From: an uncultured Pseudomonadota bacterium | Lineage (GTDB): Bacteria > Pseudomonadota > Alphaproteobacteria > Rs-D84 | DNA: 64,000 nucleotides | Assembly: GCA_902762295.1 (NCBI GenBank) | Contig: CACWNX010000001.1 | Span: forward strand, 465,671-529,670 | Direction: 5' to 3' | In this document: positions 27,366-49,455 of the stretch, piece after piece | Numbering within the stretch: position 1 is the first letter of the stretch | How the letters are laid out: each line of letters begins with the position of its first letter | Program-made: the position numbers and the translations under genes | The notes under the pieces: model-generated | What the model saw: only the letters and a program-made list of their open reading frames with translations | Told to the model about the DNA's origin: nothing | The model's database searches: none

Positions 27366-31481
<4,116 letters not shown>

Positions 31482-31492
31482 TTGTCACGTTC

Positions 31493-31891
31493 ATGAATGA
31501 AAAACCGGCAATCTTTTGTGATATAGATGGCGTAGTCAGCAAGAAATGGGCAATTGCTGACTATGACCGTTTCGGTGAACCAAATACGAATATGATACGC
31601 GTATTGGAAACATTGGGACGCGATTTTACGATTGTCTTTATCACGGGTCGCTGGGCAATGGGTCAGGCAAAGGTTGATGCGTTTATAGATAATCTTTTGC
31701 CAAATATCAAAAAATTGGTATTTTGCAAGCCGCATGATTATCCTGGCACAACCGCTGAATATAAACTGGCCAAGATAAAGGAATTAGAATCAGATGGATA
31801 TAAATTCTATCTGGGGCTGGATGACCACAGTGCGGTGATTGGTCTGATGCACAATCACGGTATGTTCGTGGCCAAGGTAATATCAGATTAA
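31493..31891 (+). CDS. Small HAD-superfamily phosphatase (132 aa)
   Basis: Motif I FCDIDGVV (DxDG), motif II FITGR, Lys in FCKP, motif IV GLDDHS. Minimal capless HAD fold. Confidence 0.55.
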   Translation: MNEKPAIFCDIDGVVSKKWAIADYDRFGEPNTNMIRVLETLGRDFTIVFITGRWAMGQAKVDAFIDNLLPNIKKLVFCKPHDYPGTTAEYKLAKIKELESDGYKFYLGLDDHSAVIGLMHNHGMFVAKVISD

Positions 31892-31957
31892 ACTTTTTCT
31901 TGCAAAAATCTGATATTATACTAGAATAAACGGGATGAAATAAAAAAGGATAGAAAA

Positions 31958-32107
31958 ATGGCAACGCCAAGAAGTAAAACCAGTAAAGCACGCAGCGCGC
32001 AACGTCGCAGTCATGACGCATTGTCGGTAATGCCATGCGGTGTATGCAAGACATGTGGCGAAAAAAAACGTCCACATCATGTCTGCCCGGCATGTGGTGC
32101 AAAATAA
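31958..32107 (+). CDS. rpmF: 50S ribosomal protein L32
   Basis: 49-aa ORF below the ORF-track size cutoff: MATPRSKTSKARSAQRRSHDALSVMPCGVCKTCGEKKRPHHVCPACGAK, the L32 signature with a zinc ribbon. AAAGGATAG RBS. Confidence 0.85.
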   Translation: MATPRSKTSKARSAQRRSHDALSVMPCGVCKTCGEKKRPHHVCPACGAK

Positions 32108-32173
32108 GAACAATCAAATAAATTGCAGATTTGGCGCACATTCTGTGCCATTCTGCATTTTTTAATGTGAAAA

Positions 32174-33232
32174 ATGTCAGACGAAAAAAAGATTATTGCG
32201 ATTGATGCGATGGGGGGCGACAAGGGGCCGATTGTTGCATTGGGTGGTATGAATCAATTTTTGTACCAACATGGTGAATCGCATATATTTTTTCATATCT
32301 TTGGTGACGAAAAAAAATTACGCAAAATGTTGGCGCGCTATCCACGCGTTGCGCGCAATTCAACGATTATAAATGCGCCCGATGTGATTCGCGGAACCGA
32401 TAAAGTTCGTGATGTTATTCGTCATGCGCAAAACACATCTATGTATATGGCAATCAAAGATGTTCGTGAAGGAAATGCCGCCGCGGTTGTCAGTGCGGGT
32501 AATACGGGTGTGTTAATGTCACTGTCAAAGTTGGCATTAAAAACGGTTGATGGAATTTCGCGTCCGGCGATAACAACAATGTTGCCGTCGGGTGCGGGTG
32601 ATTCACGCGTGGTTGTGCTTGATTTAGGTGCAAATGTTCAATGCGATGCCGAAAACTTGTTTGATTTTGCAATTTTGGGTGGTGTCTATGCCGAAGTGAT
32701 TGGTAAAATGTCGCGCCCGAAACTTGGGGTTTTAAATATTGGTGAAGAAGAAACCAAGGGTAATGAAACACTGCAACGCATTAACCATGTTTTGATGGCA
32801 CATCGCGACGAATTGCCATATGAATATTTGGGGTTCGTTGAACCAACGGATATCAGTGCCGGTCGTGTCCAGGTTGTTGTCACCGATGGTTTTACCGGTA
32901 ATATCGTTTTGAAAACCGTAGAAGGAACCGCGAAACTTATTAAACGTGTTATATCTGAAAATATGAAAAAATCATGGTTGGCAATAATTGGCGCATTTTT
33001 TCTGGTGCACGTATTTAAACGATTAAAGCATAAAATTGACCCGCGTTCATATGCCGGTGCAACATTTTTGGGATTAAAGGGGTTTGCGGTAAAAACACAT
33101 GGAAATTCGGACGCGCTGGCATTTGCAAATGCAATTCGGTATGCATCAGATTTAGCCAAAAATGATTTAAACGATATAATTCGCACACGTGCAATGGATT
33201 TGTCTAACATCCGTTCGGAATTACAGGACTAG
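32174..33232 (+). CDS. plsX: Phosphate acyltransferase PlsX
   Basis: MSDEKKIIAIDAMGGDKGP..; 352 aa; follows rpmF as in the conserved rpmF-plsX-fabH operon. Confidence 0.85.
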   Translation: MSDEKKIIAIDAMGGDKGPIVALGGMNQFLYQHGESHIFFHIFGDEKKLRKMLARYPRVARNSTIINAPDVIRGTDKVRDVIRHAQNTSMYMAIKDVREGNAAAVVSAGNTGVLMSLSKLALKTVDGISRPAITTMLPSGAGDSRVVVLDLGANVQCDAENLFDFAILGGVYAEVIGKMSRPKLGVLNIGEEETKGNETLQRINHVLMAHRDELPYEYLGFVEPTDISAGRVQVVVTDGFTGNIVLKTVEGTAKLIKRVISENMKKSWLAIIGAFFLVHVFKRLKHKIDPRSYAGATFLGLKGFAVKTHGNSDALAFANAIRYASDLAKNDLNDIIRTRAMDLSNIRSELQD

Positions 33233-33259
33233 TTTTTATTTATGTTCTGTTAAATACAC

Positions 33260-33281
33260 AATCGGCGGTTACCCGCCGATG
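33260..33281. terminator. Hairpin after plsX and after the convergent 111-aa gene
   Basis: ATCGGCGG-ttac-CCGCCGAT, 8-bp perfect stem. The flanking T-runs are weak. Confidence 0.35.
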
Positions 33282-33333
33282 TGCTCTCCCTTCTTTCCGG
33301 AAACCGGAAACTGTTTGTTTGTGTGTGTTAAAC

Positions 33334-33669
33334 CTATGCCGCCATCGCGATGTTGGTTTCGGATTTGTCGCTTTCGGCATCCATGATGCGTTTTGCTTCG
33401 GCAAAGACCATTTCTTTCACACGCAATGCTAATTCTTTTGTTTCAAGTGACTCCGCCGCGACATCAAAATTATCGGTTCGAATCTGTAATGAAACATATG
33501 CCCCAACCAACGAAGTGCGTGGTAAATCTTCGATTGAACGTGGCGCATTGTTGTGGCCAATTTGCAATTCGTCACTAAGTGATATTATTTGGCGGTCGGC
33601 ATTGACCCACACAGTTGTACTTAAAACTTTGTGCAGGGCAATCATAATTTCTTTGATGTTTTTCGGCAT
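33334..33669 (-). CDS. Hypothetical protein (111 aa)
   Basis: AAAGGAGG RBS before the ATG. The C-terminal half (..AYVSLQIRTDNFDVAAESLE..) loosely resembles the YfiA/HPF strand-helix region, but the N-terminus is too short for that fold, so the resemblance is unconfirmed. Confidence 0.4.
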   Translation of the reverse strand: MPKNIKEIMIALHKVLSTTVWVNADRQIISLSDELQIGHNNAPRSIEDLPRTSLVGAYVSLQIRTDNFDVAAESLETKELALRVKEMVFAEAKRIMDAESDKSETNIAMAA

Positions 33670-33777
33670 GTGCGTTCCCTCCTTTCTGGGTGTGGTTGCA
33701 AAAACTTAAGCCAGTTTGTATTTACATTGTGTATTTACAAAAGACTGAATTAAATTTTTATTTGTTTTTTATTTTTC

Positions 33778-33818
33778 CCCAGAAAACCGCGTTCCCTTTA
33801 GATTTCTGGGCGTTTTTT
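33778..33818 (+). terminator. Terminator-like hairpin with no upstream protein gene on this strand
   Basis: CCCAGAAA-(17-nt loop)-TTTCTGGGcgtttttt. Contains one copy of the ATTTCTGGGCG motif. Confidence 0.35.
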
Positions 33819-33928
33819 ATTCGGTCCCTTTGTCTATACACGGATGATAGAACAAAAACGAATCGTGGGTCAAGAGAAAAAATGTAAAAAAATAAAAAAA
33901 TTTTTAAATTTTTATCAACGTATTGTAA

Positions 33929-35515
33929 TCAGACGAATTTTTCGGGGATAATTTTTGAGATTGTTTTCAGTATGCGTCTGAATATTGTGGTATCGGGGTC
34001 ATAATTGTATATACATGGTTCACAATCATTCTTTTTTTGCCCTGTCCATGTGGTTTCGCCATTATTTATCGTGACATGCCATGATGTTTTTGTGTCGTGC
34101 ATAATCATATCACGCAGTTTCTTTGCAAATTCTGGGCACTCAAAAATAACAACATTTTCGGTGTTGTAATATGCGCTGCGCGGGTCCAGGTTGAAACTGC
34201 CTATCCATGAAATTTTGTCGTCAAAGACAATTGTTTTGCTGTGCATAATGGAAAATCGCGATTTGTCGCGGTCGTACAATTTATCACGCGTGTTTTCAGC
34301 CGCCGACATAAATTCGTATACATTTACACCGGCGTTTATCAGTTCGCTGCGATATTTTTCCCATTTACCATATACAGTCGTTGCATTTGTAGATGCCAAT
34401 GAATTTGTGATAATTGTTATATCAACACCATTTTTTTTGCTGTGATGCACCGCGTTCATACCGCCATCGCCCGGAACCAGGTATGCCGCCGATATGTATA
34501 TGTTATGTTTGGTGTCGTGCCAAAGTTTATTAAGTGTGGTAATAATTTCGCCCGTGTATTTTTCTTTTTTTTCTTTGGGCATTTCAACTTTTTCGGGTGG
34601 GTCGGCGATAAATTGTCCATGCCCCCAACAGAAATCAAAATTTTTCATTTTAAATTCACGTATTGCCCATGAAATAATCGTATTATATTTTCGCGCGTTT
34701 TTTGCACTGGTTTCCTGAATTTTGTTAAATTTATTTTCTAATTTTTGCATAGCGCGTTTTGATACAGCCTTGGGAATAACGGATGCCGGTACCGCCAAGT
34801 GATGCGCCCAGTACTGATTAAAACTTTCGGTCGCATCGCGCGGAACCGCCCCAAGAAATAATACATCGGTATCGGAAAAGTTTGATGATGTTTCTGGGAT
34901 AAAATAATCGCTGGCGACATTGCGACCGCCGGTAATCATCGCGACATTATCGATGATGAACAGTTTGTTATGCATGCGCGAATTCAGACGATTAAAATCA
35001 AATAATATTTCTGGGTAATATAAAATGCGTGAACGATGTCGCACTGCGTTAAAAATTTTTACTTCTATGTTTGGATGTTGATTAAGAAGTATCACATCGG
35101 CGATATCTGAACGTGTTCCATAGTCGTCAATCAAAATTCGGATTTTTACACCACGGTCGGCTGCTTTTTTTAATTCGCCAATCAAAACATGCGATGAAAA
35201 ATCATTACTGTAAATATACGTTTGTAAATCAATCGTCTTGGTCGCCATGCGTGCAAATGCCGCACGAATAACAAATGCGGACAGGCCATCTTCAATTAAC
35301 GATGCGCCGGTCACAGATTTGTCGCGTGACAATTCCGATTTATATTGTGATGCAATTGGTGTCTGCATCGGGTCGTATTCAAAATCTGATGCAATAATTT
35401 TCGGATTATATGTCGCAAGTCGCCGGTCGCGCAAACTTGTTGGTATTGTCGTGCAACCAACCAATGGCAATGCCATTAAAAAAATTTTTTGCAATGTATT
35501 GCGTGCGTTTTTCAT
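33929..35515 (-). CDS. Phospholipase D / cardiolipin-synthase family lipoprotein (two HKD motifs)
   Basis: Lipobox ..FLMALPLVGC after MKNARNTLQK. HKD motifs HNKLFIIDN..GGRN and HSKTIVFDD..GSFNLD. About 528 aa from the Met at 35515; the ORF-track start is 35554. Confidence 0.7.
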   Translation of the reverse strand: MKNARNTLQKIFLMALPLVGCTTIPTSLRDRRLATYNPKIIASDFEYDPMQTPIASQYKSELSRDKSVTGASLIEDGLSAFVIRAAFARMATKTIDLQTYIYSNDFSSHVLIGELKKAADRGVKIRILIDDYGTRSDIADVILLNQHPNIEVKIFNAVRHRSRILYYPEILFDFNRLNSRMHNKLFIIDNVAMITGGRNVASDYFIPETSSNFSDTDVLFLGAVPRDATESFNQYWAHHLAVPASVIPKAVSKRAMQKLENKFNKIQETSAKNARKYNTIISWAIREFKMKNFDFCWGHGQFIADPPEKVEMPKEKKEKYTGEIITTLNKLWHDTKHNIYISAAYLVPGDGGMNAVHHSKKNGVDITIITNSLASTNATTVYGKWEKYRSELINAGVNVYEFMSAAENTRDKLYDRDKSRFSIMHSKTIVFDDKISWIGSFNLDPRSAYYNTENVVIFECPEFAKKLRDMIMHDTKTSWHVTINNGETTWTGQKKNDCEPCIYNYDPDTTIFRRILKTISKIIPEKFV

Positions 35516-35619
35516 ATGTATGTTTATTATAGATTGTTGTTGTTTGTTTCGCAAGGTTATCGGTGTTCAGATTTTATTCCGCGTTTAATAAAAAAATTTA
35601 AAAAAGTTGTTTGTTTGGC

Positions 35620-35648
35620 TTGCGTAAAATTCATAAAAATGATAAAAT
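35620..35648 (+). promoter_or_regulatory. Candidate extended -10 sigma70 promoter for the 35676 gene
   Basis: TTGCGT, 17-nt spacer containing TG, TAAAAT; followed by an AAGGAAGGAAAGG RBS. Confidence 0.45.
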
Positions 35649-35675
35649 CTTGACTAAGGAAGGAAAGGTTTTTCA

Positions 35676-37931
35676 ATGAAAAGACGTTTTTTTATGCTGA
35701 TTGGGCTGTTGGTGACACCTGCAATGGCGGAGGTTGCGCCTGTTTTTTATGATGACGAATTGCCTATTGAATATTCAGATATGGACGAAGTCACAGATGA
35801 ACAATTCGATACAGAACCGATTGTGACCCCAACAGTCGTGGCGCCTATAAAAGTTTCACGTCAGCCGTACACAACATCTTCGCGTAGTGTTTCATCCCAG
35901 GCGGTTTCGTCCCGCGTGGCACCAGTATCTCGTGGAACTGCGGCTTCGGGTCGTACATCATCGGCTGCTGATGGTCGTGTTGTCGCAGCGCGCACCGGGA
36001 CAAGTACATCGCCACGTACCGTATCAGAGCCAAGTCGTTCGGGTGTGACATCACGCAGTGCCACATCAAACCGCACATCACCTGGAACTGCGACTCGTGC
36101 AGCAACAACAAGTCAAACCTCGGAAATAAGAACAATTGGATATGTAGATACAACAACAACTCCATTGTACAACGCGAACGGTGCAGCATCATCAACACCA
36201 CTGTACAACGCGAACAGCACACGTATCAGTGTCCGCGGTACTGGTGTAAGCGCACGTGTTCCAACAATTCGTGTGGCCAGTGCAGCAAACAGTTTATCTG
36301 GTTCAGATATGTCTACATCAACGGCAACCAGCCTGCAAGATATGGATAGCCTTGCCGAAATGACAGATTACTGCAAGGCGCAATATGCTGCATGTATGGA
36401 TAATTATTGCAATGTTTTGGATGATAACCAGGGACGTTGCAGTTGTAGCGCAAACCTGAAAAACTATGCCAAGGCGGAAAGTGCATTAAAGTCTGCAACA
36501 AATGAATTACAAGAAGTTGCCCAGAAAATCCAATATATCGGATTGAATACTCGCGAAATTGAAACATTATTCAGTGAAACCGAGGCGGAAATCGCTATGT
36601 CGGGCAAAACTGATACCAGTCAGATAAAAACTAGTCTTGATAAAATCAAAGATATGTTGATAGAAGTGCGCACAGGTAACGCCACCAGTGATAACAGCCT
36701 TAGCAATTTTGGGTTTGACCTGAACGGGCTTTTGGACTTTACAATTGACAGCACCGGTTTCGATATTAGCGCATTCCTTGGGACATTCGGCACAGGCACC
36801 AACAGTGTCACAAATCAACGTGGTGAAGAATTGTATAAAACCGCACAAAATCGTTGTAAATCGGCGGTGTTGCGCAGTTGCACAGCCCAGGGGGTTGATG
36901 CAAACCTTATAACGAACAGTTATGATTTACAAATAGATAAAGAATGCATACTGTACGAACGCAGTTTAACGGATGCAAATGACCAAATGGTTGCAACTGT
37001 GCGTAACGCAAAGAGCGTGTTGCAAAAGGCGCGTTTATTGGTGTCGCAACAAAAAAATGTTTATGATATGCGCGGATGCATAAATGCGTTGGATGCATGT
37101 ATGCAGGATGAATTTGTATGCGGAACCGATTATGAAAATTGCCTTGATCCAACAGGGCGGTACATAGTAAATGGTGCGATAGTTATCGGCAGTCAACCCG
37201 GTCATGTTATTGATCCAAATGGCACCCCAAGTGCAGTAATGACCAGTGATGTTTGCAAGATAAATTTATATCGTACATGGGATATCGGCACATGCCAGTC
37301 TAATAAAGGCAATGCGTGGGGTTCGGACACGAATGATACATTGGCAAACTATATATCAACTTATGTGACACAAACCGCAGCCCAGTCATCAAGTACAAAT
37401 ATGGCGGAATTCTTGCAGAACAAGATTGGCTATGTCAGTGACACACGCAATTTCGGCATGTGCGTATCGGTCCTTAATAAATGCCAGGACTATACATACA
37501 AAACAACTGGTAGCAAGACAGTGTATGATCCAACAAACGATGTTATTAAACAGTATTTGGAACGCGTACTGATTCAGATAAAAGCGAAACAGGATTCTAT
37601 CTTGGCGGATTATGCAGACAGTTGTATTAGTGATGTGTCAACGTGTTTATCACAGAATGGATATCCAGCAGATGAACCAAGCACATGGACGAATGGTGGC
37701 AGTCAACAGATTCAAGCGAATATCGCAATAAATGCATGTCGCCCAACAATCGTCACATGTATGTCGGTTAATGGCTATTCAACAAGTACACCAACACCTG
37801 GTGAAATGAATTGTTGGGTTATGGGATTGTTGTTTAATACACAAACATCACAGTGTATGAATAATTATTCGGGCAGTGGTACAAACTCTTCACAGAGTCA
37901 GCTTGTCGGTCATGATGATAATAGCATTTAA
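35676..37931 (+). CDS. Large secreted protein: signal peptide, Ser/Thr/Arg-rich low-complexity linker, 500-aa Cys-rich C-terminal domain
   Basis: MKRRFFMLIGLLVTPAMA signal. Residues about 60-160 are S/T/R/A-rich (..SRSVSSQAVSSRVAPVSRGTAASGRTSSAADGR..). A tandem 12-aa repeat TPLYNAN.. x2 follows. The C-terminal domain has about 30 Cys. No family recognised. Confidence 0.6.
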   Translation: MKRRFFMLIGLLVTPAMAEVAPVFYDDELPIEYSDMDEVTDEQFDTEPIVTPTVVAPIKVSRQPYTTSSRSVSSQAVSSRVAPVSRGTAASGRTSSAADGRVVAARTGTSTSPRTVSEPSRSGVTSRSATSNRTSPGTATRAATTSQTSEIRTIGYVDTTTTPLYNANGAASSTPLYNANSTRISVRGTGVSARVPTIRVASAANSLSGSDMSTSTATSLQDMDSLAEMTDYCKAQYAACMDNYCNVLDDNQGRCSCSANLKNYAKAESALKSATNELQEVAQKIQYIGLNTREIETLFSETEAEIAMSGKTDTSQIKTSLDKIKDMLIEVRTGNATSDNSLSNFGFDLNGLLDFTIDSTGFDISAFLGTFGTGTNSVTNQRGEELYKTAQNRCKSAVLRSCTAQGVDANLITNSYDLQIDKECILYERSLTDANDQMVATVRNAKSVLQKARLLVSQQKNVYDMRGCINALDACMQDEFVCGTDYENCLDPTGRYIVNGAIVIGSQPGHVIDPNGTPSAVMTSDVCKINLYRTWDIGTCQSNKGNAWGSDTNDTLANYISTYVTQTAAQSSSTNMAEFLQNKIGYVSDTRNFGMCVSVLNKCQDYTYKTTGSKTVYDPTNDVIKQYLERVLIQIKAKQDSILADYADSCISDVSTCLSQNGYPADEPSTWTNGGSQQIQANIAINACRPTIVTCMSVNGYSTSTPTPGEMNCWVMGLLFNTQTSQCMNNYSGSGTNSSQSQLVGHDDNSI
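36159..36230 (+). repeat. In-frame 36-nt tandem repeat (2 copies) inside the 35676 CDS
   Basis: ACTCCATTGTACAACGCGAACGG.. and ACACCACTGTACAACGCGAACAG.., encoding TPLYNANGAASS / TPLYNANSTRIS. Confidence 0.6.
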
Positions 37932-38257
37932 TGATGCAATATTAAATGCATAACTAGGCCGGCGATGGTCGCAATGGTTATTATAATCAAAATTATTCGC
38001 TGGGTGCGATGGTGGTGCGTTGCGTCACAGTGTTCACATTTGCAATCATGACTACTGAAATACATCAACCATGATAATATCAACATTAAACCCGAAAATA
38101 TAAACAGCCAAATTTCGGCACTTTCCGGAATTATCTCGTGATCGGCGATATCGGGTGCAATCATACCAACCAATCCCAACACAACCGGCAACACACAACA
38201 AAACATGTGTGGTAACAATCCTGCAATAATTCCAATTTTAACCGCACGATTTTTCAT
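37928..38257 (-). CDS. MerT-like small metal-ion transport membrane protein
   Basis: 109 aa, 3 predicted TM helices. TM1 carries a vicinal Cys pair in HMFCCVLPVVLGL, like the MerT CCxxP motif. The TM2-TM3 cytoplasmic loop reads HDCKCEHCDATHHH (Cys/His-rich). No merR, merP or merA adjacent. Confidence 0.45.
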   Translation of the reverse strand: MKNRAVKIGIIAGLLPHMFCCVLPVVLGLVGMIAPDIADHEIIPESAEIWLFIFSGLMLILSWLMYFSSHDCKCEHCDATHHHRTQRIILIIITIATIAGLVMHLILHH

Positions 38258-38283
38258 AATTTGTATCCATTTTTTTTATTTCT

Positions 38284-38359
38284 TGGTATCCCCAGCCGGA
38301 ATCGAACCAGCATCTAATTCTTAGGAGGAACTTGTTCTATCCAATTGAACTATGGGGAC
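38284..38359 (-). tRNA. trnR: tRNA-Arg (anticodon CCT)
   Basis: Reverse complement GTCCCCATAGTTCAATTGGATAGAACAAGTTCCTCCTAAGAATTAGATGCTGGTTCGATTCCGGCTGGGGATACCA: 7-bp acceptor stem, anticodon loop CTCCTAA, T-loop TTCGATT, encoded CCA. Confidence 0.85.
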
Positions 38360-38446
38360 ACGATAGTAATTTTAATCCCAGATTTTCATATTGCAAGTTA
38401 TATTAAAATATGTATAATACATGAACGCTGTATTGGAAGTTTTGAT

Positions 38447-39385
38447 ATGGGAAATAAACTGATTGGATATGGTTCGTATTTGCCCGCCCGCGTTATGACC
38501 AACGCGGATTTTGAACGTATAATGGATACGACCGATGAATGGATTGTTTCGCGCACCGGGATTCATGAACGGCATATGGCCGCAGAAAATGAAACAGTTG
38601 TGGATATGGCAACAAATGCCGCGCGTGCCGCATTAAAAAATGCGAATATTGGTATAGATGATATTGATATGATTATTGTTGCGACAACTACACCAGAATT
38701 AGACTTTCCATCGGTTGCGGTTCAGGTTATGGGTCGTCTTGGGGCAACGAAAAATATACCTGCGTTTGATGTGCGCGGTGCGTGTACGGGTTTTATTTAT
38801 GCGTTGCACTGTGCACGTGGATTTTTTTCGGCGGGTATGCATGAACGTATTATGGTAATTGGTGCCGAAAAAATGTCGCGGTTTATTGATATGACCGATC
38901 GTTCAACGGCGGTTCTGTTCGGTGATGGTGCAGGCGCACTAATTTTTGAACATTCGTCATCAAGTTATTCGGGGATTATTGACACAGTTGTTATGTCAAA
39001 TGGTAAAATGTTTGATATGTTGCACGGTTCACCTGACCACCGAATAATTATGAATGGTCCCGAAACATATAAAATGGCGGTATCGCTGATGCCGGATGCA
39101 GCGCGTTATATTATGGAACATGCCGGCATAACCCAGAATGATATTGATTGGATTGTGCCACACCAGGCGAACATTCGTATTATTCAGTCGTGTGCGGCGC
39201 GTTTGGGATTTCCGATGGAAAAAATTTTAATAACCGTAGATAAACATGCGAATACCAGTGGCGCATCTGGTGCGTTGGCGCTGGCATACGCATTTGACAA
39301 TAATATAATCAAACATGGGCAACTTGTTCTGTATCCTGCATTTGGCAGTGGACTGACATGGGGCGCAACATTAATAAGGGTGTAA
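38447..39385 (+). CDS. fabH: 3-oxoacyl-ACP synthase III
   Basis: MGNKLIGYGSYLPARVMTNADFERIMDTTDEWIVSRTGIHERH.., active-site Cys region GACTGF, C-terminal GSGLTWGA. The ORF-track start (38345) overlaps tRNA-Arg, so the Met at 38447 is used. Confidence 0.85.
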   Translation: MGNKLIGYGSYLPARVMTNADFERIMDTTDEWIVSRTGIHERHMAAENETVVDMATNAARAALKNANIGIDDIDMIIVATTTPELDFPSVAVQVMGRLGATKNIPAFDVRGACTGFIYALHCARGFFSAGMHERIMVIGAEKMSRFIDMTDRSTAVLFGDGAGALIFEHSSSSYSGIIDTVVMSNGKMFDMLHGSPDHRIIMNGPETYKMAVSLMPDAARYIMEHAGITQNDIDWIVPHQANIRIIQSCAARLGFPMEKILITVDKHANTSGASGALALAYAFDNNIIKHGQLVLYPAFGSGLTWGATLIRV

Positions 39386-39388
39386 AAA

Positions 39389-39676
39389 ATGGCAACAATA
39401 ACAAGAAATGATTTGGCAAATAAATTACGTGATAAATTCGGTTTCACAGGAGCACAAGCCGGAAAATTGGTTGATTTAATTTTTGATGAAATTTGTGAAG
39501 CATTGATTAACGGCGAAGAAGTTAAATTTGCCGGTTTTGGAACATTCAAAATTCTGGACAAATCTGCACGTATTGCCCGCAATCCAAAAACTGGTGAAAC
39601 GGCAATCGTCACGGCGCGACGCGTCACAACATTTCGCCCAAGTACAGAATTCCGCAAACGCGTTGCAAAGAAATAG
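39389..39676 (+). CDS. ihfA: Integration host factor subunit alpha
   Basis: ..GFGTFKILDKSARIARNPKTGETAIVTARRVTTFRPS.. HU/IHF fold with the IHF-alpha pattern; conserved position after fabH. Confidence 0.8.
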   Translation: MATITRNDLANKLRDKFGFTGAQAGKLVDLIFDEICEALINGEEVKFAGFGTFKILDKSARIARNPKTGETAIVTARRVTTFRPSTEFRKRVAKK

Positions 39677-39749
39677 CAGGCATTTATTCATTAAACATTT
39701 ACACCAATTACCAAAATATGCTATAATAACCTGAACACAGGAGAGATAT

Positions 39750-40679
39750 ATGAAGATAGCAATTATTGGTGTTGGTTCGGTTGGTTCGGCGGTTGCAACC
39801 GCCGTGAAGAACACAGGGCTTGTTCACGAAATTGTCTTGTTCGACCGCGACAGTATCCGCGCACGCGCCGCCGCCGAAGACCTTGGGCATGCGGCAACAT
39901 TTGGATTTGATGTGAAAATAAATGCAGTTGCAAATTATCGCGGAATTCGTGGTTCTGATATTGTGATAATCGCCGCCGGCGCAAATCAAAAACCGGGCGA
40001 AACGCGTACTGATTTGCTGCAGAATAATGCCGAAGTGGTTCGTGATATTGTGCCACGCGTTATGGCAAATGTTGACCCAAAACGCGTTATTTTAATTCTG
40101 GTCACAAACCCGTTGGATGTTATGGTTATGTTGGCCCAGAAATTGTCTAATTTGCCACCGGCACGTGTTATTGGTACGGGCACAATGTTGGATACGGCGC
40201 GCCTGCGCACGATATTGGCGCGTGGACTGGGGGTGTCCCCGCAATCGATTCATTCCTATGTAATTGGTGAACATGGCGACAGCAGTGTTATCGATTGGTC
40301 GTCCATCACCGTTGGTGGACTGGGACTGGATGATTTTTGTCATCAGGTAAAGGTCCCATTGACCACCACAGTGCGCGAGACAATTGAATATCGTGTTCGT
40401 AATGCGGCATATGAAATTATTCGTGGTCGTGGTGCAACATGGGACGGAATCGGTGCCGCGGTTGCAGATTTGATGAAGTGTGTAATAAATGATGAACATC
40501 GGATATTGACGGTGTCAACGGTTTCGGGTACGGGGCATAACATTGTTGCCATGTCGTTGCCACGTGTTGTTGGTGCCGATGGAGTTATAACGACACTGAA
40601 CCCCAAAATGTCGGCAACTGAATCTTCGGCATTGCGACGCAGCGCACGTATTATCCAAAAGAATTTTGCAAAAATTTAG
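39750..40679 (+). CDS. mdh: Malate dehydrogenase, LDH-like type
   Basis: MKIAIIGVGSVGSAVA NAD fold; ..GTGTMLDTARLRT..IGEHGDS.. LDH/MDH family. Confidence 0.75.
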   Translation: MKIAIIGVGSVGSAVATAVKNTGLVHEIVLFDRDSIRARAAAEDLGHAATFGFDVKINAVANYRGIRGSDIVIIAAGANQKPGETRTDLLQNNAEVVRDIVPRVMANVDPKRVILILVTNPLDVMVMLAQKLSNLPPARVIGTGTMLDTARLRTILARGLGVSPQSIHSYVIGEHGDSSVIDWSSITVGGLGLDDFCHQVKVPLTTTVRETIEYRVRNAAYEIIRGRGATWDGIGAAVADLMKCVINDEHRILTVSTVSGTGHNIVAMSLPRVVGADGVITTLNPKMSATESSALRRSARIIQKNFAKI

Positions 40680-40770
40680 TGCATGGGGGAAAACATACCC
40701 GCCCATTGGCAAACATTCATATTTAAGATGATATCTGATTGTGCTATTGTTATATATAGGGAAAACAATA

Positions 40771-41073
40771 ATGCCGACAGATATAGAATATGAACGTTTA
40801 CAAAATGGTAATGGTTTTTGTGCGAAATACCATGGTCATAAAATCGGCGAAATAGATATTGTCACCATTGGCGCAAATCGTATTATTATTGAATCAACAA
40901 CTATCGATGATAATTTTCGTGACACCGAACTTTGTCGAAACTTGGTTCAGTGTGTCGCAGATTTTGCACGACGTACACATAAAAAGATTTTATCACTCTG
41001 TCCACGTGCACAATCAATATTTAATCGGTATCCAGAATTTGATGATGTGCGCTTAATCAGTGCCGCAGAATAA
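40771..41073 (+). CDS. Small GNAT-fold protein (YjdJ-like acetyltransferase domain)
   Basis: About 100 aa; ..HTHKKILSLCPRAQSIFNRYPEFDDV.. matches the short GNAT-like family pattern. Confidence 0.5.
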   Translation: MPTDIEYERLQNGNGFCAKYHGHKIGEIDIVTIGANRIIIESTTIDDNFRDTELCRNLVQCVADFARRTHKKILSLCPRAQSIFNRYPEFDDVRLISAAE

Positions 41074-41098
41074 AAGAATTCGGATAAAACCGCGTTCT

Positions 41099-41686
41099 TT
41101 ATACATCCAGGTTGCTGACAACAAAATTCCAATCTATTAAACTGTCCAGGAATGCATCAACAAAATCACTGCGCCGATTTTGATAGTCAAGATAGTATGC
41201 ATGTTCCCATAAATCCAACGCAAGAACCGGCCTTTTACCATGTGCAATTGGCGTATCTGCATTTTTGGTGGCGATAATTTCAAATTTATCATTATCGTAT
41301 GTCAACCAAACCCATCCCGAACCAAATACATCGCCGGCAACAGATTTGAATTTTTCTTTGAATTCGGCCGCGCCACCAAATGCATCAGATATTAAATCCG
41401 GAACCATAGTGTTGCCACCGCGTCCCAAACAATTAAAAAAGAATTCGTGATTAAAAATTTGGGCCGCGTTATTAAATATTTTTTGTGCGTTTTCATCGCG
41501 CGCCGAATTTATAATAATTTCACGCAAATCCATATCGGCATATTTTGTATCTGCAATCAGTTTATTTAAATTTGCAATGTATGTTGCAAGGTGTTTCCCA
41601 TAATGAAATTGTACCGTTTCAACAGACATATATGGAACCAAATCTGTTTCACGAAACGGTAACGGAAAATCGTTCAGCTGGAACAT
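41099..41686 (-). CDS. sodB: Fe/Mn superoxide dismutase
   Basis: ..FNNAAQIFNHEFFF.. and metal-ligand motif DLWEHAYYLDYQNRR. Confidence 0.9.
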   Translation of the reverse strand: MFQLNDFPLPFRETDLVPYMSVETVQFHYGKHLATYIANLNKLIADTKYADMDLREIIINSARDENAQKIFNNAAQIFNHEFFFNCLGRGGNTMVPDLISDAFGGAAEFKEKFKSVAGDVFGSGWVWLTYDNDKFEIIATKNADTPIAHGKRPVLALDLWEHAYYLDYQNRRSDFVDAFLDSLIDWNFVVSNLDV

Positions 41687-41826
41687 TGTCTTTCTCCTTT
41701 GGCTTTTTCTATTTTATATAATAATATTTTTGTCGCCATAGGAAAAATAGTTTATTTTTTGTTAAAAATCACTTGCACGATATGCGTTGTTATTTCTATA
41801 ATCAGATTAAAATAAAAGGAGAAAAA

Positions 41827-42417
41827 ATGAAAAAATCATCTGTTTTAGGCGCGCTTGCGGGTGTGATGTTTATTGGAAATGCGGTTGCGGCCGATATAAC
41901 AATTTACTATTCACCGACATGTCCGCATTGTCATCATGCGTTGGAATTTATTTCTAACAATTTGATATATGAATATGAAAACTTGAATGTGACCAAGGTT
42001 AATGTGATGGAATCGGCAAATCGTGATGATTTTATGGCCGCATTAAAAAAGTGTGAATATGAATCTGGTGGTGTTCCGGTTTTGGTTATTGGCGACAAAT
42101 GCTTCCAGGGTTATGGCGATGCCATGCAGGGCGATGTCCGTGCCGCGATAGAGGTTGACTTGGATGATGCGGCAAAATCGGCGGCGGCGGAGAATAAATT
42201 GGCAATGGAAAAAAATGCAGATGAATTTCGCAATAACCATTCTGAACGCGCATCGGCAATTGTTGATCGCGAAACCGCAAAAGTTGCAGATGAAGATGCG
42301 CAAAAAAAAACTAAAAAAAATGCTAGCAAAACATCAGGTGGTAATTGGGTATTATATTTAATACTGATTATGTTGCTTGGTGGACTGGGGTTTGTGTTAA
42401 CGCGTAAAACAAAATAA
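41827..42417 (+). CDS. Exported glutaredoxin/thioredoxin-fold protein (CPHC active site) with C-terminal membrane anchor
   Basis: AAAGGAGAAAAA RBS. Signal peptide MKKSSVLGALAGVMFIGNAVAA. ITIYYSPTCPHCHH..GVPVLVIGDKCFQGYG (Grx-like). Charged linker, then TM NWVLYLILIMLLGGLGFVL. Confidence 0.6.
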   Translation: MKKSSVLGALAGVMFIGNAVAADITIYYSPTCPHCHHALEFISNNLIYEYENLNVTKVNVMESANRDDFMAALKKCEYESGGVPVLVIGDKCFQGYGDAMQGDVRAAIEVDLDDAAKSAAAENKLAMEKNADEFRNNHSERASAIVDRETAKVADEDAQKKTKKNASKTSGGNWVLYLILIMLLGGLGFVLTRKTK

Positions 42418-42420
42418 TGG

Positions 42421-43191
42421 ATGGAAATCATGTTTGACTTGACATGGATGGATTATATCTATATCGGCATATTACTGCTGTCCACAATATGGGCAACGGT
42501 TCGTGGCGGAATTTATGAAACGGTCGCGACATTATCATGGGTTGTTGCGGCGATTTCTGCACGATTTGCATCACCGTGGTTGGATAAATTATTACAGTCC
42601 TGGTTCGGCCTTGCCGAATCAACGGTTGGAACATTGGTGGCATCATATTTCATCGTGTTCTTTGTGATATTGCTGGTTGTGGGTATATTTAACCAGAAAC
42701 TGCGTGATCGAATTCAGGACAGTGTGATGAATGTCACCGACCGCACATTGGGGGTTATATTTGGTATCGTTCGTGGTGTGGTTGTTATGGGTATCGCATA
42801 TTGGATTGCGTTGTGGTATTTTTCCGACTATCCGCGTATGCCACATTGGATTGCCGATGCGCGCACGCGTCCGATTATGCAGTTGACCGCCGTTAAATTA
42901 GATCAATGGTTTATCCCGGGACCGGAAAACAGATTATTGAAACGTGATGTTGATGGTACGCACGAGGCAAAAAAGATATTTGATAACCTGATAAATCCGC
43001 GGGTGGTTGACGGCGAAAAAACGAAATCCGAAAATTCTGATGCGAAAAAACCGGAATCGAAACCAAACGAAGAAACCGGATATAAAAATTCAGAACGGTC
43101 TGCGTTGGAAAATCAACTGTTGCAGATTGAAACAGTTGCCAACGCGGTTGAACGACACGAACAAAACCGTGCAAAGCAAAATAAAGAATAA
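42421..43191 (+). CDS. cvpA: CvpA-family membrane protein
   Basis: ..DYIYIGILLLSTIWATVRGGIYE.. and ..DRTLGVIFGIVRGVVVMG.. match the colicin V production protein family. Charged C-terminal extension. Confidence 0.7.
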   Translation: MEIMFDLTWMDYIYIGILLLSTIWATVRGGIYETVATLSWVVAAISARFASPWLDKLLQSWFGLAESTVGTLVASYFIVFFVILLVVGIFNQKLRDRIQDSVMNVTDRTLGVIFGIVRGVVVMGIAYWIALWYFSDYPRMPHWIADARTRPIMQLTAVKLDQWFIPGPENRLLKRDVDGTHEAKKIFDNLINPRVVDGEKTKSENSDAKKPESKPNEETGYKNSERSALENQLLQIETVANAVERHEQNRAKQNKE

Positions 43192-43221
43192 AAAACGGAA
43201 TCAAATGATTTCGTTTTTTTA
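43192..43221 (+). terminator. Rho-independent terminator after cvpA
   Basis: AACGGAATC-aaat-GATTTCGTTttttttt. Confidence 0.6.
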
Positions 43222-43344
43222 ATGGTGTTTTTATTATTGTTTTGATTTTTATCCAATTTTAGTGTAACATACTATTGACAGGGCGATTGCTTTGTTGGGT
43301 GTCAGAACCCATTTAATGTATCGTGTCCGCGGGGACAAAAAATA

Positions 43345-43455
43345 CCTCCAACCAAACGTGGTTGGAGGGCGGTGAATATGTAGAATAAGCCCACTATTTT
43401 TCCGGGCATAATAGTTCTGAACCTCCAACCACTTGCTTTGTCTGGTGGTTTTTTG
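43345..43455 (+). promoter_or_regulatory. Structured leader upstream of the 43501 gene: perfect 10-bp CCUCCAACCA/UGGUUGGAGG hairpin, a second CCUCCAACCAC copy, then a terminator-like hairpin
   Basis: Hairpin 43345-43368 (CCTCCAACCA-aacg-TGGTTGGAGG). Second copy CCTCCAACCAC at 43422-43432, overlapping the stem AACCAC-(11 nt)-GGTGGTTtttttg at 43427-43455. Mutually exclusive pairings are possible. Confidence 0.4.
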
Positions 43456-43500
43456 TTCGTGTCTAATCAAACATTCGTGCACATAAAGAAAGGATAAGGT

Positions 43501-44469
43501 ATGAAAAAATTTATAGTTGTGTGTATATTCGGCTTAATAACCGTCCGGTCGTTCGGCCAAGTAGATGCTGATAGCGACAATATTGTTAACAACGCAACAG
43601 AATTGTTTAATGCCACAAAAATAGTTTGTTCGGGATTATCAGATGAAATTTCAAAAGTTTCAAATGTATCAAAAATAAACACCGCGGTAACCGGAGTTGG
43701 AACTGTTGCAGCCGGTGGTGCTTTGGCGGTTGGAATGGCAAAATCAAGTGAGGAAAGGGAAATAGAAGCATTGATAGACAAAATTTGTGCCAATGGTGGA
43801 TGCAGCGCAGAAAGTGTTAATGCGATGAGCCTGGAACAATTTTATACAAATGTCATTTCCCCAATGGCAGAAATTGCGGAATTACAGAACAAATTAGACC
43901 ACTCTAAAAAATTGGGTAATTGGCGCACTGGTTTAATGGCCGGAACAATCGGCACAAATTTGGCATCTGCAATAATATCGGGCGTAAACGCAAATCAATC
44001 TGATTTGATTCAGCATATAGAGGCGTGCAATAAAATGATAAAATCTTTGTCAGATATGCCGGCCAAATTGACATCTGCGGGTGTAAGTCCGTTGGATAAT
44101 CCAATAGCGAAAAAAATCAATAATGTAAAGACCTGGTGTAACCAGATAAACGTCAGTGATGCACAAAAAATAGAAAAGCGTATGAAAGGTGTAATGGGCA
44201 CATCAATCGCAGGCGTTGTGGTTGGTGGTATTGGCACAGCGGCCAGTGCGTCATCAAATTCCAATAAATATATGAATGCGGAACAAAGAATCGCCTTAAC
44301 AGAATCTGAAAAACAAAGTGTAAATAATTTGAATACGACGGCCAACATAATGTCGGGGGTTAATGTTGGTACAGGTTTGGTAGAGACGGGGTTAAATATT
44401 TCACTAATAACTTTAACAAAAAAAATGATACGCCAAGCCGAAATGTGTGAAGAGGCTTTGCAACAGTAG
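43501..44469 (+). CDS. Secreted hypothetical protein (322 aa)
   Basis: AAAGGATAAGG RBS. Signal peptide MKKFIVVCIFGLITVRSFGQ; Gly/Ala/Ser/Thr-rich; no TM. Confidence 0.5.
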   Translation: MKKFIVVCIFGLITVRSFGQVDADSDNIVNNATELFNATKIVCSGLSDEISKVSNVSKINTAVTGVGTVAAGGALAVGMAKSSEEREIEALIDKICANGGCSAESVNAMSLEQFYTNVISPMAEIAELQNKLDHSKKLGNWRTGLMAGTIGTNLASAIISGVNANQSDLIQHIEACNKMIKSLSDMPAKLTSAGVSPLDNPIAKKINNVKTWCNQINVSDAQKIEKRMKGVMGTSIAGVVVGGIGTAASASSNSNKYMNAEQRIALTESEKQSVNNLNTTANIMSGVNVGTGLVETGLNISLITLTKKMIRQAEMCEEALQQ

Positions 44470-44479
44470 GAGAAAAAAT

Positions 44480-45187
44480 ATGAAGAATTTTTTAATAATT
44501 TTGTCCTGTTTGTTTTATGTTCAAAATGCGTATTGTGATAATCCACCATTTGATATGGAATCTATGAATGCAGATTACATTGCCGGCAAGATTGATTTGG
44601 CAACGGCAATAGCGCTGTGTAAGCAAATTGTCAACTATGCGAAAGTGACCGAAATTGAAGTGTTATTACCGTATACCTCAGCCGATGGGAAAGAAATGTG
44701 GCATTCTATAAATAAGGATGATTGCGAACCTTCACCTGATTGGGATTACGATAGAAATTTGAGCTGGGTTTGGAATATCGCCATGTATGCGGCCAGGATT
44801 GTGGTAGAAACTGGTGTAAAAGAACATTCACAATGTCATCAATCTTTTATGGAATCACAGGCACGAACAAGGTGCGGTAGATTTGAGATGTCAAACTGGA
44901 CAAAAATTGGTTATACCATTTCTGGGTTAAATAACATGAATATAGATTGTTCTAAGACAGATAATAGATGTGTTGTAACCAGGCCAGCAAGCGATAAAAA
45001 CGGCAAAAATGTATTTTATACCGCCTGTTGTTTGATACCTATTATCAATTGTGAGTCTATAACAAATGATTCCGAACAGATTTTTTCTGGTACAACAGGA
45101 GATATTAGTCTTAGATGGAACGGTTTTACGGATAAGGCATTGGTTTTGGATGATTTTGGTTATGATTGTAAGCCAAAAACCGAATAA
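44480..45187 (+). CDS. Secreted Cys-rich hypothetical protein (235 aa)
   Basis: TAGGAGAAAAA RBS. Signal peptide MKNFLIILSCLFYVQNAYC; about 14 Cys. Confidence 0.5.
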   Translation: MKNFLIILSCLFYVQNAYCDNPPFDMESMNADYIAGKIDLATAIALCKQIVNYAKVTEIEVLLPYTSADGKEMWHSINKDDCEPSPDWDYDRNLSWVWNIAMYAARIVVETGVKEHSQCHQSFMESQARTRCGRFEMSNWTKIGYTISGLNNMNIDCSKTDNRCVVTRPASDKNGKNVFYTACCLIPIINCESITNDSEQIFSGTTGDISLRWNGFTDKALVLDDFGYDCKPKTE

Positions 45188-45189
45188 TT

Positions 45190-46104
45190 ATGAAACGCAT
45201 AATGGTATCATTTTTGTTGCTTATGTCGTCACTTTCTTGGGCGAATGATGCGTGTACCAATCCCGAAGCATATACGATTGATAAGCGTTGCTATGTAACC
45301 GAAGAACAAAAGAAACAAAAACCATACAATGCGGTTGCCACACTGGTATTGAACGATGGGCGAACACACTGTTCTGGAACAGTTGTAAAACGACAAGGAT
45401 TAACAATAGATGATGTGGGATATTTTTTATATACCGCCAAACATTGTGTAGATTTAAACCATGATAATATCACCGATGATTTGTTAAGAATACGATTGCC
45501 CAGCAATCAGGAATTTAACGCAAAACTGGTAAAACAGGGCAATTTAGATTATCAAGACCCCGCAAGTCAAACAGGCGATTGGGCAAAGTATAGGTTGGTC
45601 ACAATTGAACAAAATTCTGCTGACGGTGTAAAAGATTCTTTGGGTGGTGCATATGTGAAAATAAATGATTCTTTTGCACGCGGTGCAAAAAATGTTCGTA
45701 TTATTGGTTATGGTAAACTAAAAATAATGAGTGACCAAGAAATACAAGATTTTAAAAATGAATATACAGATTTTATTGACAAAACAGGTACCAATGCTAA
45801 TGACACGCATACAGATGATGGTGGAATTTATGGAAACGGTGTAACGATGTTTGTTTTGAAGAACAATAACCGTTTTAACGATAATCTGTTAAAAGTTTCA
45901 AAATGTTATCAAGATGCAAACACCAAGTTCACAGGATGTCAAGGATGGGGTGGAAATTCCGGTGGTGGTGCGTTTGATGACAATGGAAATTTAATGTGGA
46001 TACCCACATTAGGGCATTATCAAATCGGCGGCAAAGATCATGCCAGTATAACAGGCGGTGAAAATTTTCTTCCGTTTGGCAGATTACCCAACGTAAAAAA
46101 ATGA
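45190..46104 (+). CDS. Secreted trypsin-like (S1 family) serine protease
   Basis: Signal peptide MKRIMVSFLLLMSSLSWA. Catalytic triad contexts TAKHCV (His), DWAKYRL (Asp) and GCQGWGGNSGGGAF (Ser, GDSGG-like). Confidence 0.65.
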   Translation: MKRIMVSFLLLMSSLSWANDACTNPEAYTIDKRCYVTEEQKKQKPYNAVATLVLNDGRTHCSGTVVKRQGLTIDDVGYFLYTAKHCVDLNHDNITDDLLRIRLPSNQEFNAKLVKQGNLDYQDPASQTGDWAKYRLVTIEQNSADGVKDSLGGAYVKINDSFARGAKNVRIIGYGKLKIMSDQEIQDFKNEYTDFIDKTGTNANDTHTDDGGIYGNGVTMFVLKNNNRFNDNLLKVSKCYQDANTKFTGCQGWGGNSGGGAFDDNGNLMWIPTLGHYQIGGKDHASITGGENFLPFGRLPNVKK

Positions 46105-46150
46105 TATACAACCAAGGATTGCCTATCTTATAATTTGCTAAATTTTTTAA

Positions 46151-46172
46151 GCCCACGCGTTGTTGCGTGGGC
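46151..46172. terminator. Perfect 8-bp hairpin between the protease gene and tRNA-Thr
   Basis: GCCCACGC-gttgtt-GCGTGGGC, 14 nt past the tRNA-Thr 3' end. No strong T-run on either strand. Confidence 0.3.
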
Positions 46173-46185
46173 TAACAAAATTTCC

Positions 46186-46261
46186 TGGTGCCAGTTGTCG
46201 GACTTGAACCAACGACCCTCTGATTACAAATCAGATGCTCTACCAGCTGAGCTAAACTGGC
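46186..46261 (-). tRNA. trnT: tRNA-Thr (anticodon TGT)
   Basis: Reverse complement GCCAGTTTAGCTCAGCTGGTAGAGCATCTGATTTGTAATCAGAGGGTCGTTGGTTCAAGTCCGACAACTGGCACCA: acceptor GCCAGTT/AACTGGC, anticodon loop TTTGTAA. Confidence 0.85.
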
Positions 46262-46364
46262 GACACCGTGTAATTATACATAGACGCGCGTGTAAAGCAA
46301 GTAAAAATTACAAGTTTTTAAAATAAATCTTGCAAATGGGCTTTTGGGGGCTAGTATTAAAATC

Positions 46365-47609: not shown

Positions 47610-47611
47610 TA

Positions 47612-48145
47612 TTATTTCTCTTTTATGTGGCGTGACAATGCAAACCGTCTATATTGACGTGCAAATTCGGTCGGGTCGTTTTCTAATAATTCTATTTGGG
47701 TGTCGGGTAATACATTTGCCCAATCATAAAAAGTACCGACATATGGAGAACTTTGCGATGGTGCCTTGATGGTCACTAATATATCCGGGTGTGCAATGGT
47801 TAATATTATCCGTTCAAATTCATCAAGTGCCGATTTTACATCTGCGGCCACAGACTTTTTGTCTTTGGTGCAAATATGTTCATTTTTTTGTGATAAAATT
47901 GTCATATTGCCAGATTCAATTTCTTTGTGTGCAATATGAAATTCCATCAAGTAATCCATAGCCAGTTTTGTATCGGCACCTTTATGCTTTGCCAGTATAT
48001 CTTTCATTTTGGATGTTGCCTGATACCAAGATTCCTGGGGCGACATATTTTTTGATGTATAGGACAGAACCAGTGTATCATACAAATGGATATATGCTTT
48101 TTCTAATTTTTGTTTATCAAATATGCTTAATTTCACGGGCTGCAT
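47612..48145 (-). CDS. Hypothetical protein (177 aa)
   Basis: Intact ORF, no signal peptide, no recognised motif. Confidence 0.35.
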   Translation of the reverse strand: MQPVKLSIFDKQKLEKAYIHLYDTLVLSYTSKNMSPQESWYQATSKMKDILAKHKGADTKLAMDYLMEFHIAHKEIESGNMTILSQKNEHICTKDKKSVAADVKSALDEFERIILTIAHPDILVTIKAPSQSSPYVGTFYDWANVLPDTQIELLENDPTEFARQYRRFALSRHIKEK

Positions 48146-48291
48146 ACAGAAACACCTTTTTATAACTTTATTACGGTGAATATACTAGAACTTTATGTTC
48201 GGTATTACAACAAAATTTTAGATTTAAAATTGTTTTGACACAGATTGAATATTGCGTAATCATATTAGGGTTGTATTCTCAAACGACACTG

Positions 48292-49440: not shown

Positions 49441-49455
49441 TTTATCACAAAACGC

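Follow-up and report, generated by a model that had tools for sequence, protein, structure and literature searches.

The interval described here separates plsX from fabH in a 64-kb stretch of DNA (hereafter the window, on which all positions are numbered) of Candidatus Enterousia, a rumen/gut alphaproteobacterium placed by NCBI in Alphaproteobacteria incertae sedis. The genes rpmF, plsX and fabH belong to a canonical cluster, which in E. coli reads yceD-rpmF-plsX-fabH-fabD-fabG-acpP-fabF, and in many alphaproteobacteria ihfA follows fabH. In the window, plsX and fabH are separated by 5214 nucleotides (nt), and the region is built up of the following features (product lengths in amino acids, aa; open reading frame, ORF; phospholipase D, PLD):

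ending at 31481: rpoC, with a HAD-like ORF and then rpmF and plsX downstream
31958-32107, plus strand: rpmF (ribosomal protein L32, 49 aa), an ORF whose orthologue in the relative L083 was called with PF01783 and which stands beside plsX in all loci
32174-33232, plus strand: plsX (phosphate acyltransferase, 352 aa; Pfam FA_synthesis, 6.6e-94)
33233-33333: plsX/hyp111 intergenic region (junction J1), with hairpins at 33261-33280 and 33294-33310; a recurrent rearrangement breakpoint
33334-33669, minus strand: hyp111 (111 aa), a lineage-restricted and strongly conserved ORF
33929-35515, minus strand: gene for a PLD-superfamily lipoprotein (528 aa)
35516-35675: divergent intergenic region of 160 nt, shared by the PLD gene and sec751
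35676-37931, plus strand: sec751, coding for a 751-aa secreted protein of an uncharacterised family
37928-38257, minus strand: gene for a MerT/MerC-like small membrane protein (109 aa; weak Pfam MerT match), hereafter the merT-like gene
38284-38359, minus strand: tRNA-Arg(CCU) (ARAGORN; Rfam, 60.2 bits)
38360-38446: divergent promoter region between tRNA-Arg and fabH, with promoter-like consensus matches only
38447-39385, plus strand: fabH (KAS III, 312 aa; ACP_syn_III and ACP_syn_III_C domains)
39389-39676, plus strand: gene for an ihfA/HU-family DNA-binding protein (95 aa; Bac_DNA_binding, 1.1e-25)

The end of plsX at 33232, the start of fabH at 38447, the four genes between them and all other coordinates agree with an earlier note on this DNA, which had read the block as a genomic island targeted to the tRNA gene, possibly old and decayed.

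Members of Candidatus Enterousia belong to the uncultured order Rs-D84 and have genomes mostly below 1 Mb, with the tricarboxylic acid (TCA) cycle and the respiratory chain absent (PMC12306168). PlsX of the window has hundreds of close homologues among metagenome-assembled genomes (MAGs) of alphaproteobacteria, and PlsX identity ranges from 78 to 100% across the genus. Our genus sample comprised 80 species-representative genome loci from rumen/gut MAGs and Ca. Enterousia (PlsX identity 78-90%), on which the presence of the window proteins was determined by tblastn; presence counts are limited to the 53 loci that extend 9.5 kb or more beyond plsX, and fabH often lies just past the 10-kb flank of the genus loci. 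Outgroups are metagenome contigs obtained by a scan with the PlsX of L086 (PlsX 73%, RpoC 84.5%); L-numbers denote individual loci or contigs of homologues, relatives and outgroups.

Comparison with the outgroups revealed that the operon split is real and represents a derived state, since the deeper relatives keep rpmF-plsX-fabH-ihfA contiguous. In eight outgroup contigs (L101, L107, L109, L111, L112, L149, L162 and L100) plsX and fabH are 8-145 nt apart and are followed by ihfA, the common order being Pom(-)-rpmF-plsX-fabH-ihfA-peptidase(-)-hemW(-), which bears out the earlier view that the cluster is contiguous otherwise and interrupted here. No direct statement of plsX-fabH-ihfA synteny in alphaproteobacteria was found in the literature, and the point is settled by these contigs. 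Of 7 loci in which Pom(-) stands on the left of rpmF-plsX, 6 have plsX and fabH adjacent, against none of the 101 with rpoC in this place. In Enterousia, rpmF-plsX stands behind rpoBC(-HAD) and fabH-ihfA behind tRNA-Arg(CCU), the halves being 5 kb apart in the window and, among relatives, either inverted or separated by 1-9 kb. The rpmF-plsX and fabH-ihfA pairs are each intact in the window and keep the canonical orientation; the differences from the canonical cluster are the separation of the halves, a promoter-like site belonging to fabH itself and the displacement of rpmF-plsX to a place behind rpoBC. Both flanks of rpmF-plsX have changed together and therefore point to rearrangement, as a simple insertion would have left the left flank unchanged. 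The outgroup neighbourhood of plsX-fabH is itself found in the window in rearranged form at 52374-58133 (M13 peptidase, radical-SAM protein, Pom and SLT_2).

The outgroup contig L162 (RpoC 74%) carries rpoC, a 295-aa gene, hyp111(-), mraZ(+), a PagL-like outer-membrane protein (OMP) gene, a 273-aa gene and tRNA-Arg(CCU)(+), followed by SLT_2(-), Pom(-), rpmF, plsX, fabH, two further genes and ihfA. Hence hyp111, mraZ and tRNA-Arg(CCU) are native to this contig, where they precede an intact plsX-fabH pair by a few kb.

Within the genus, the genes of the interval are widespread and have diverged together with the rest of the genome. Of the 53 loci, 47 have hyp111 downstream of plsX, 41 the PLD gene, 41 sec751 and 28 the merT-like gene; 50 have one or more of these four. 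Pairwise protein distances of the four correlated with RpoC distances (r = 0.87 for hyp111, 0.76 for sec751, 0.74 for the merT-like protein and 0.67 for the PLD protein), and the corresponding values of the flanking genes were 0.79 for PlsX, 0.81 for IhfA and 0.90 for FabH. The divergence of the four interval genes is tree-like and about as well correlated as that of the flanking housekeeping genes. Their base composition (GC 0.396-0.441; GC at third codon positions, GC3, 0.378-0.441) matches that of the other 51 ORFs of the window (GC 0.420±0.038; GC3 0.383±0.055), their codon-bias distances lie within the spread of those ORFs, and a local dip in GC skew coincides with the minus-strand genes in the same way as at sodB. 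The comparisons set beforehand thus spoke against an island: relatives carry the same genes downstream of plsX with native composition, codon usage of the block is within the range of the window, and the skew follows the strand.

The searches for traces of a mobile element agree with this picture. No recombinase, transposase, phage or defence family was matched by the four proteins in Pfam, NCBIfam, PHROGs and PADLOC, the PHROGs/PADLOC matches being confined to generic PLD-superfamily similarity (DrmC and similar). Apart from antisense shadows, no ORF of at least 60 aa is left over in 33233-38283, and no integrase or transposase appeared in the top-25 family lists (Pfam, PHROG) of 76 other non-core proteins encoded downstream of plsX in relatives. 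When tRNA-Arg fragments were searched for in 31000-38283 with blastn-short and exact k-mers, the best hits were 9-10-mers at chance level, the 10-mers deriving from the 5' half of the tRNA, so that the duplicated 3' fragment for which the earlier note had suggested a search did not emerge; long direct and inverted repeats across 31-52 kb were likewise at chance level. In this respect the earlier note, which had seen neither integrase nor attachment (att) repeat by eye, was right.

Variation among relatives consists of inversions and of neighbouring housekeeping genes rather than of exchanged cargo at the tRNA. Extra genes in the interval of relatives code for an autotransporter-like protein of ~900 aa, other Cys-rich secreted proteins, small OMPs, GalE, GuaC and others. 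In loci where something quite unlike this adjoins plsX, it is housekeeping DNA, such as the genes for NrdD, a topoisomerase, FabI, S1, PFOR, GroEL, Lgt, LpxI or Adk.

The tRNA-Arg(CCU) gene was recovered by both ARAGORN and Rfam on the minus strand with its 3' end, at 38284, directed toward the block, as had been noticed before. On the same strand, 26 nt of A-rich sequence without a terminator (38257-38284) separate it from the start of the merT-like gene, and in 19 of 25 species this gap is 17-32 nt. The two genes look like a conserved tRNA-mRNA unit and are probably co-transcribed. The 3' end most likely points toward the block because a conserved downstream gene follows it and not because an element integrated there, and a gap of 17-32 nt leaves no room for an attachment site. 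Two relatives, L044 (19702-19720) and L079 (19235-19253), carry a 19-nt copy of the tRNA-Arg(CCU) 3' end (ATTCCTGTTGGGGATACCA) ~93 nt downstream of the tRNA and before the merT-like gene, with the T-arm-like sequence GGTTCGAACC in the spacer between tRNA and copy; the copy is absent from the window and could be an att-like scar or a pseudo-tRNA. A gene of cluster c24 (~300 aa) stands beside the merT-like gene in L059, L061, L071 and L080, in the first three of them, where the tRNA was detected, between the merT-like gene and tRNA-Arg. No other variable cargo lies immediately on the 3' side of the tRNA, and no repeat was found to flank this one.

Considering these data together, it is very probable that the interval consists of native, vertically inherited Enterousia genes that were set between the operon halves by old intrachromosomal rearrangements, and not by a mobile element. 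The starting state would have been Pom(-)-rpmF-plsX-fabH-ihfA-peptidase-hemW, as found in the outgroups, from which rpmF-plsX would have come to lie behind rpoBC(-HAD) and fabH-ihfA behind tRNA-Arg(CCU), changing both flanks of rpmF-plsX. A single inversion of an order like that of L162, its breakpoints lying ahead of the tRNA and at the plsX/fabH boundary, might have produced the present junction of tRNA-Arg(-) and fabH(+); further rearrangement events would be needed for the remaining order. The interval is made up of three modules, each of which moves and flips as a unit.

Several observations weigh against this interpretation or limit its detail. The outgroups are metagenome contigs, placed by hyp111, the sec751 family, Pom and RpoC/PlsX identity and not by a species tree, and L162 is the only one in which hyp111, mraZ and the tRNA were seen upstream of an intact plsX-fabH. 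In L086 and L091, the deepest of the lineages with the split, neither the PLD gene nor the merT-like gene is part of the interval, and in outgroups no PLD gene was seen up to 10 kb from plsX. The PLD gene, and perhaps the merT-like gene, may thus have arrived later than hyp111 and sec751. Furthermore, the 19-nt copy in L044 and L079 shows that tRNA-Arg has been hit by some integration-like event in the lineage. The data are compatible with more than one inversion scenario of two or three steps.

An ancient island, inserted at tRNA-Arg(CCU) before the radiation of Enterousia and since deprived of its integrase and att sites and fully ameliorated, is the form in which the earlier proposal would have to be upheld, and we consider it very unlikely. 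The known tRNA-targeted islands and P4-type elements with tyrosine integrases resemble the locus in that accessory-looking genes (PLD, merT-like and secreted protein, without housekeeping annotation) abut a tRNA 3' end, and the anticodon is shared with a known target, as argW of E. coli, also a tRNA-Arg(CCU), hosts the CPS-53/KpLE1 prophage. The absence of the PLD and merT-like genes from the interval in L086 and L091, the duplicate in L044 and L079 and the variable c24 gene would suit an island as well. However, among the hallmarks of such elements only the location of the tRNA 3' end is seen here, whereas a recombinase, an att repeat, deviant composition and a patchy distribution are not; the genes are present genus-wide and all four have diverged in step with RpoC. 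The gene beside the tRNA is a conserved co-oriented partner at a distance of 26 nt, with no attL between them, and the duplicate of L044 and L079 lies between the tRNA and the merT-like gene, so that this gene and the rest of the block fall outside it. Moreover, hyp111 and the tRNA are native neighbours in L162, and the left flank of rpmF-plsX has changed along with the right one, which simple insertion does not predict.

The arrangement might also have been selected, the PLD lipoprotein and its partners having been recruited into a lipid/envelope neighbourhood under common regulation with the synthesis of phospholipids and fatty acids. PlsX, PLD/cardiolipin-synthase-like enzymes and FabH all act on lipids, and in most species the modules stay within ~10 kb of plsX despite repeated inversions. 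Against such recruitment, which appears very improbable, stand the freely changing order and orientation of the modules, the promoter-like and terminator-like sites that each unit possesses, the absence of the PLD gene from the interval in L086/L091 and L117/L118, which keep the split, and the unrelated genes that follow plsX in the closest relative. An artefact of assembly or binning, i.e., a chimeric MAG contig joined at the tRNA, would be conceivable for a sequence of metagenomic source, as tRNAs and repeats are common points of mis-joining, but its probability is close to negligible. An identical PlsX is encoded on five contigs, of which the two shown (L001 and L002, one of them 549 kb long) share the order of the window; the arrangement is not an assembly artefact, because the same order occurs on identical-PlsX contigs from different ENA samples. 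Metagenome contig L132 agrees as far as its sequence reaches, and the same module order was found in many related species assembled by different groups.

Rearrangement by an intrachromosomal route, as proposed above, has continued around plsX, and its extent involves the following features to the right of ihfA:

39677-52373: block E, with mdh, GNAT, sodB, DsbA-like, cvpA, tRNA-Thr, U32 peptidase and other genes (Pfam)
39677-39749 and 52360-52373: junctions J2 and J3, which bound block E
52374-58133: M13 peptidase(-), radical-SAM HemW-like(-), Pom outer-membrane protein(+) and SLT_2 transglycosylase(+) genes (Pfam)

Block E lies between ihfA and the M13 peptidase gene in the window, an arrangement that L085 and many other relatives do not share. 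The genes of the last row are neighbours of fabH-ihfA in most relatives and in outgroups, and the ihfA-M13-hemW adjacency is present in L085, L156, L101 and L107. The closest relative, L083/L084 (PlsX 96%, ~92% nucleotide identity), follows the window collinearly as far as 33228 and then continues with window position 52355 backwards, the stretch from 52355 to 41187 standing inverted directly after plsX; this corresponds to a 19-kb inversion of 33233-52355, the ends of which lie within a few bases of the stop codon of plsX and directly behind a 570-aa gene. L083 also lacks ~3 kb (window 43219-46365). In L085, hyp111, the PLD gene, two sec751 paralogues, two extra genes, the merT-like gene, the tRNA, fabH and ihfA follow a DUF805 gene instead of plsX; homology to the window begins at 33238 and runs from 39677 straight to 52369 and on into the M13 peptidase gene. 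Positions 33233, 39677 and 52360 are therefore recurrent breakpoints.

At least 10 module orders and orientations were distinguished among ~100 loci ordered on the RpoC tree, and throughout them three modules stay intact: hyp111 with mraZ, the PLD gene with sec751, and tRNA-Arg with the merT-like gene, back to back with fabH-ihfA. In module shorthand, the order is h- Z+ S- R- F+ I+ in L086/L091 and Z- h+ M13- in L117/L118, with PLD absent and the split kept. The window represents the most compact version of the interval within its clade, and no mraZ, c17 or c18 gene and no paralogue of a block gene elsewhere was found in its 64 kb; a whole-window Rfam scan returned three tRNAs and nothing else. 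In a subclade comprising L032, L036, L039, L042, L053, L056, L064, L098, L099, L108, L113, L115, L120, L125, L128, L141, L145 and L168, the locus lacks fabH, and ~95 nt separate ihfA from tRNA-Arg(CCU); these species retain plsX and may have lost or relocated fabH.

The PLD protein has the two HKD motifs that the earlier note had described. It contains two PLDc_2 stretches (4.7e-36), with one HxKxxxxD motif in each of its two domains (HNKLFIID, residue 195; HSKTIVFD, residue 438). Its longest ORF spans 33929-35554, with the likelier start at ATG 35515, which yields 528 aa with the lipobox LVGC and has a promoter-like site at 35554-35526 just upstream. The protein aligns partially to the ClsB and bacterial cardiolipin synthase models and shares the domain pair with ClsB/ClsC-type cardiolipin synthases and bacterial phospholipases D; it falls far short of the NCBIfam equivalog cut-offs for cardiolipin synthases (104.9 vs 290 bits for TIGR04265; 81.6 vs 281 for ClsB NF008427), and its closest matches among PDB sequences are weak ones to phospholipases. 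Unlike cardiolipin synthases, it carries a lipoprotein signal in place of N-terminal membrane helices and has a constant Cys-rich secreted partner. The protein is similar to cardiolipin synthases or phospholipase D and may act on phospholipids.

The partner, sec751, has a signal peptide, a Ser/Thr/Arg-rich linker at residues 56-215 (37.5% Ser+Thr) and a ~550-aa helical domain, the 22 Cys residues all lying after residue 215, in the C-terminal 536 residues; the linker and the Cys-rich domain had been recognised before and were confirmed. Of 60 loci with both genes, 59 show them as divergent neighbours, 47 of these with a gap below 300 nt, and the two most likely constitute a co-regulated pair for envelope or lipid remodelling. 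The family of sec751 has more than 1300 members, with highly variable N-terminal regions (685-960 aa), some with faint Flg_new repeats, and with other members of up to 2300 aa without any Pfam domain; tandem duplicates occur in L085 (7191-12319) and L071 (12876-17389). In the window, sec751 and the merT-like gene are convergent and their stop codons overlap by 4 nt (37928-37931). At this junction close relatives have 2.5-3 kb encoding another Cys-rich secreted protein (cluster c17, 444-1226 aa), which looks like either a clean deletion in the window lineage or a gain of the c17 gene in the relatives. A secreted or membrane-anchored thioredoxin-fold protein with a CPHC motif (41773-42417, plus strand), DsbA-like and with a weak Pfam Glutaredoxin match on the public contig, could oxidise the cysteines of sec751 in the periplasm.

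The merT-like protein, of 109 aa, had been called a MerT-like metal transporter; the family assignment is below threshold, with 18.5 bits to Pfam MerT (cut-off 32.9) and 3e-5 to NCBIfam MerTP. Among 19 orthologues, six match MerC and two match MerT, all sub-threshold with E-values of ~1e-3. With MerT and MerC it shares a size of ~110 aa, three helices apparent by reading, a vicinal Cys pair in helix 1, set in the motif P16-H17-x-F19-C20-C21 that is invariant in the 19 orthologues, and clustered Cys residues in the loop that leads to the last helix. It differs from them in its CxCxxC and His-rich loops and C-terminal His residues, in its constant place downstream of tRNA-Arg(CCU) and in its neighbours, which are tRNA-Arg, sec751 and fabH, with no merR, merP or merA in the interval; a profile search against PDB gave noise only. 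The protein may bind or transport a thiophilic metal. In outgroup L100, a merT-like gene (12245-12559, 41% identity) lies between fabH and ihfA with plsX-fabH contiguous, and the link of the merT-like gene with fabH may be older than the split.

The longest ORF of fabH starts at TTG 38345 and overlaps the tRNA; the start at ATG 38447, to which the earlier note had moved it, is used by gene callers on identical contigs and gives a FabH of 312 aa that aligns end to end with orthologues. Promoter-like matches to the consensus only were found for fabH (TTGCAA-16-TATAAT, plus strand, 38391-38418) and on the tRNA side (TTGCAA-16-TAAAAT, minus strand, 38396-38369), the latter of which could drive tRNA-Arg and the merT-like gene. 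As terminator-like hairpins (33261-33310) follow plsX and a separate promoter-like site precedes fabH, the halves of the operon are likely to be independent transcription units. On the identical public contigs, a 144-aa antisense ORF without Pfam match (31707-32141, minus strand) is annotated and the 49-aa rpmF is missed, while rpmF of L083 is called correctly.

The protein hyp111 has 539 homologues in 5.8 billion clusters, the top 120 at 77-95% identity; it is restricted to the lineage, within which its conservation exceeds that of PlsX, and in most species its gene is divergent from a stand-alone mraZ. Alignment of the orthologues shows a variable acidic linker followed by an invariant C-terminal AMAA, a tail that resembles an ssrA-type ClpXP degron and is taken here as a lead only. 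No match was found in Pfam, NCBIfam, PHROG or PADLOC, and the AlphaFold2 model was unusable (pLDDT 52). A 119-aa antisense ORF (33350-33709, plus strand) was set aside as a gene, given that gene callers use the minus-strand ORF and that its product has the conserved C-terminal motif; both ORFs share the third-codon phase, and codon periodicity does not separate them.

The stretch downstream of plsX might further be regarded as a lineage-specific plasticity zone of gut symbionts with reduced genomes, in which three fixed modules undergo repeated inversion and are interleaved with fast-evolving surface-protein genes (autotransporter-like, Cys-rich and OMP genes in relatives), a view that we hold to be unlikely. 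If it were true, a new two-gene envelope system would form the core of the zone, with the PLD lipoprotein and the secreted 550-aa Cys-rich helical domain, of no known fold, perhaps serving to remodel or attack membranes of host or partner cells, and the metal-handling membrane protein might be expressed as a tRNA-mRNA co-transcript.

On comparison with relatives, the split of the operon is ordinary synteny decay in a small, fast-rearranging genome. It cautions that a tRNA 3' end beside unannotated genes interrupting an operon can mimic a genomic island. As a rearrangement hot spot, the surroundings of plsX and fabH can serve for strain typing and assembly checks in Rs-D84/Enterousia. The strictly conserved divergent pair of the PLD gene and sec751 provides candidates for envelope or host-interaction functions, and hyp111, lineage-restricted, conserved above PlsX and bearing an ssrA-like AMAA tail, is of use to the study of this lineage.

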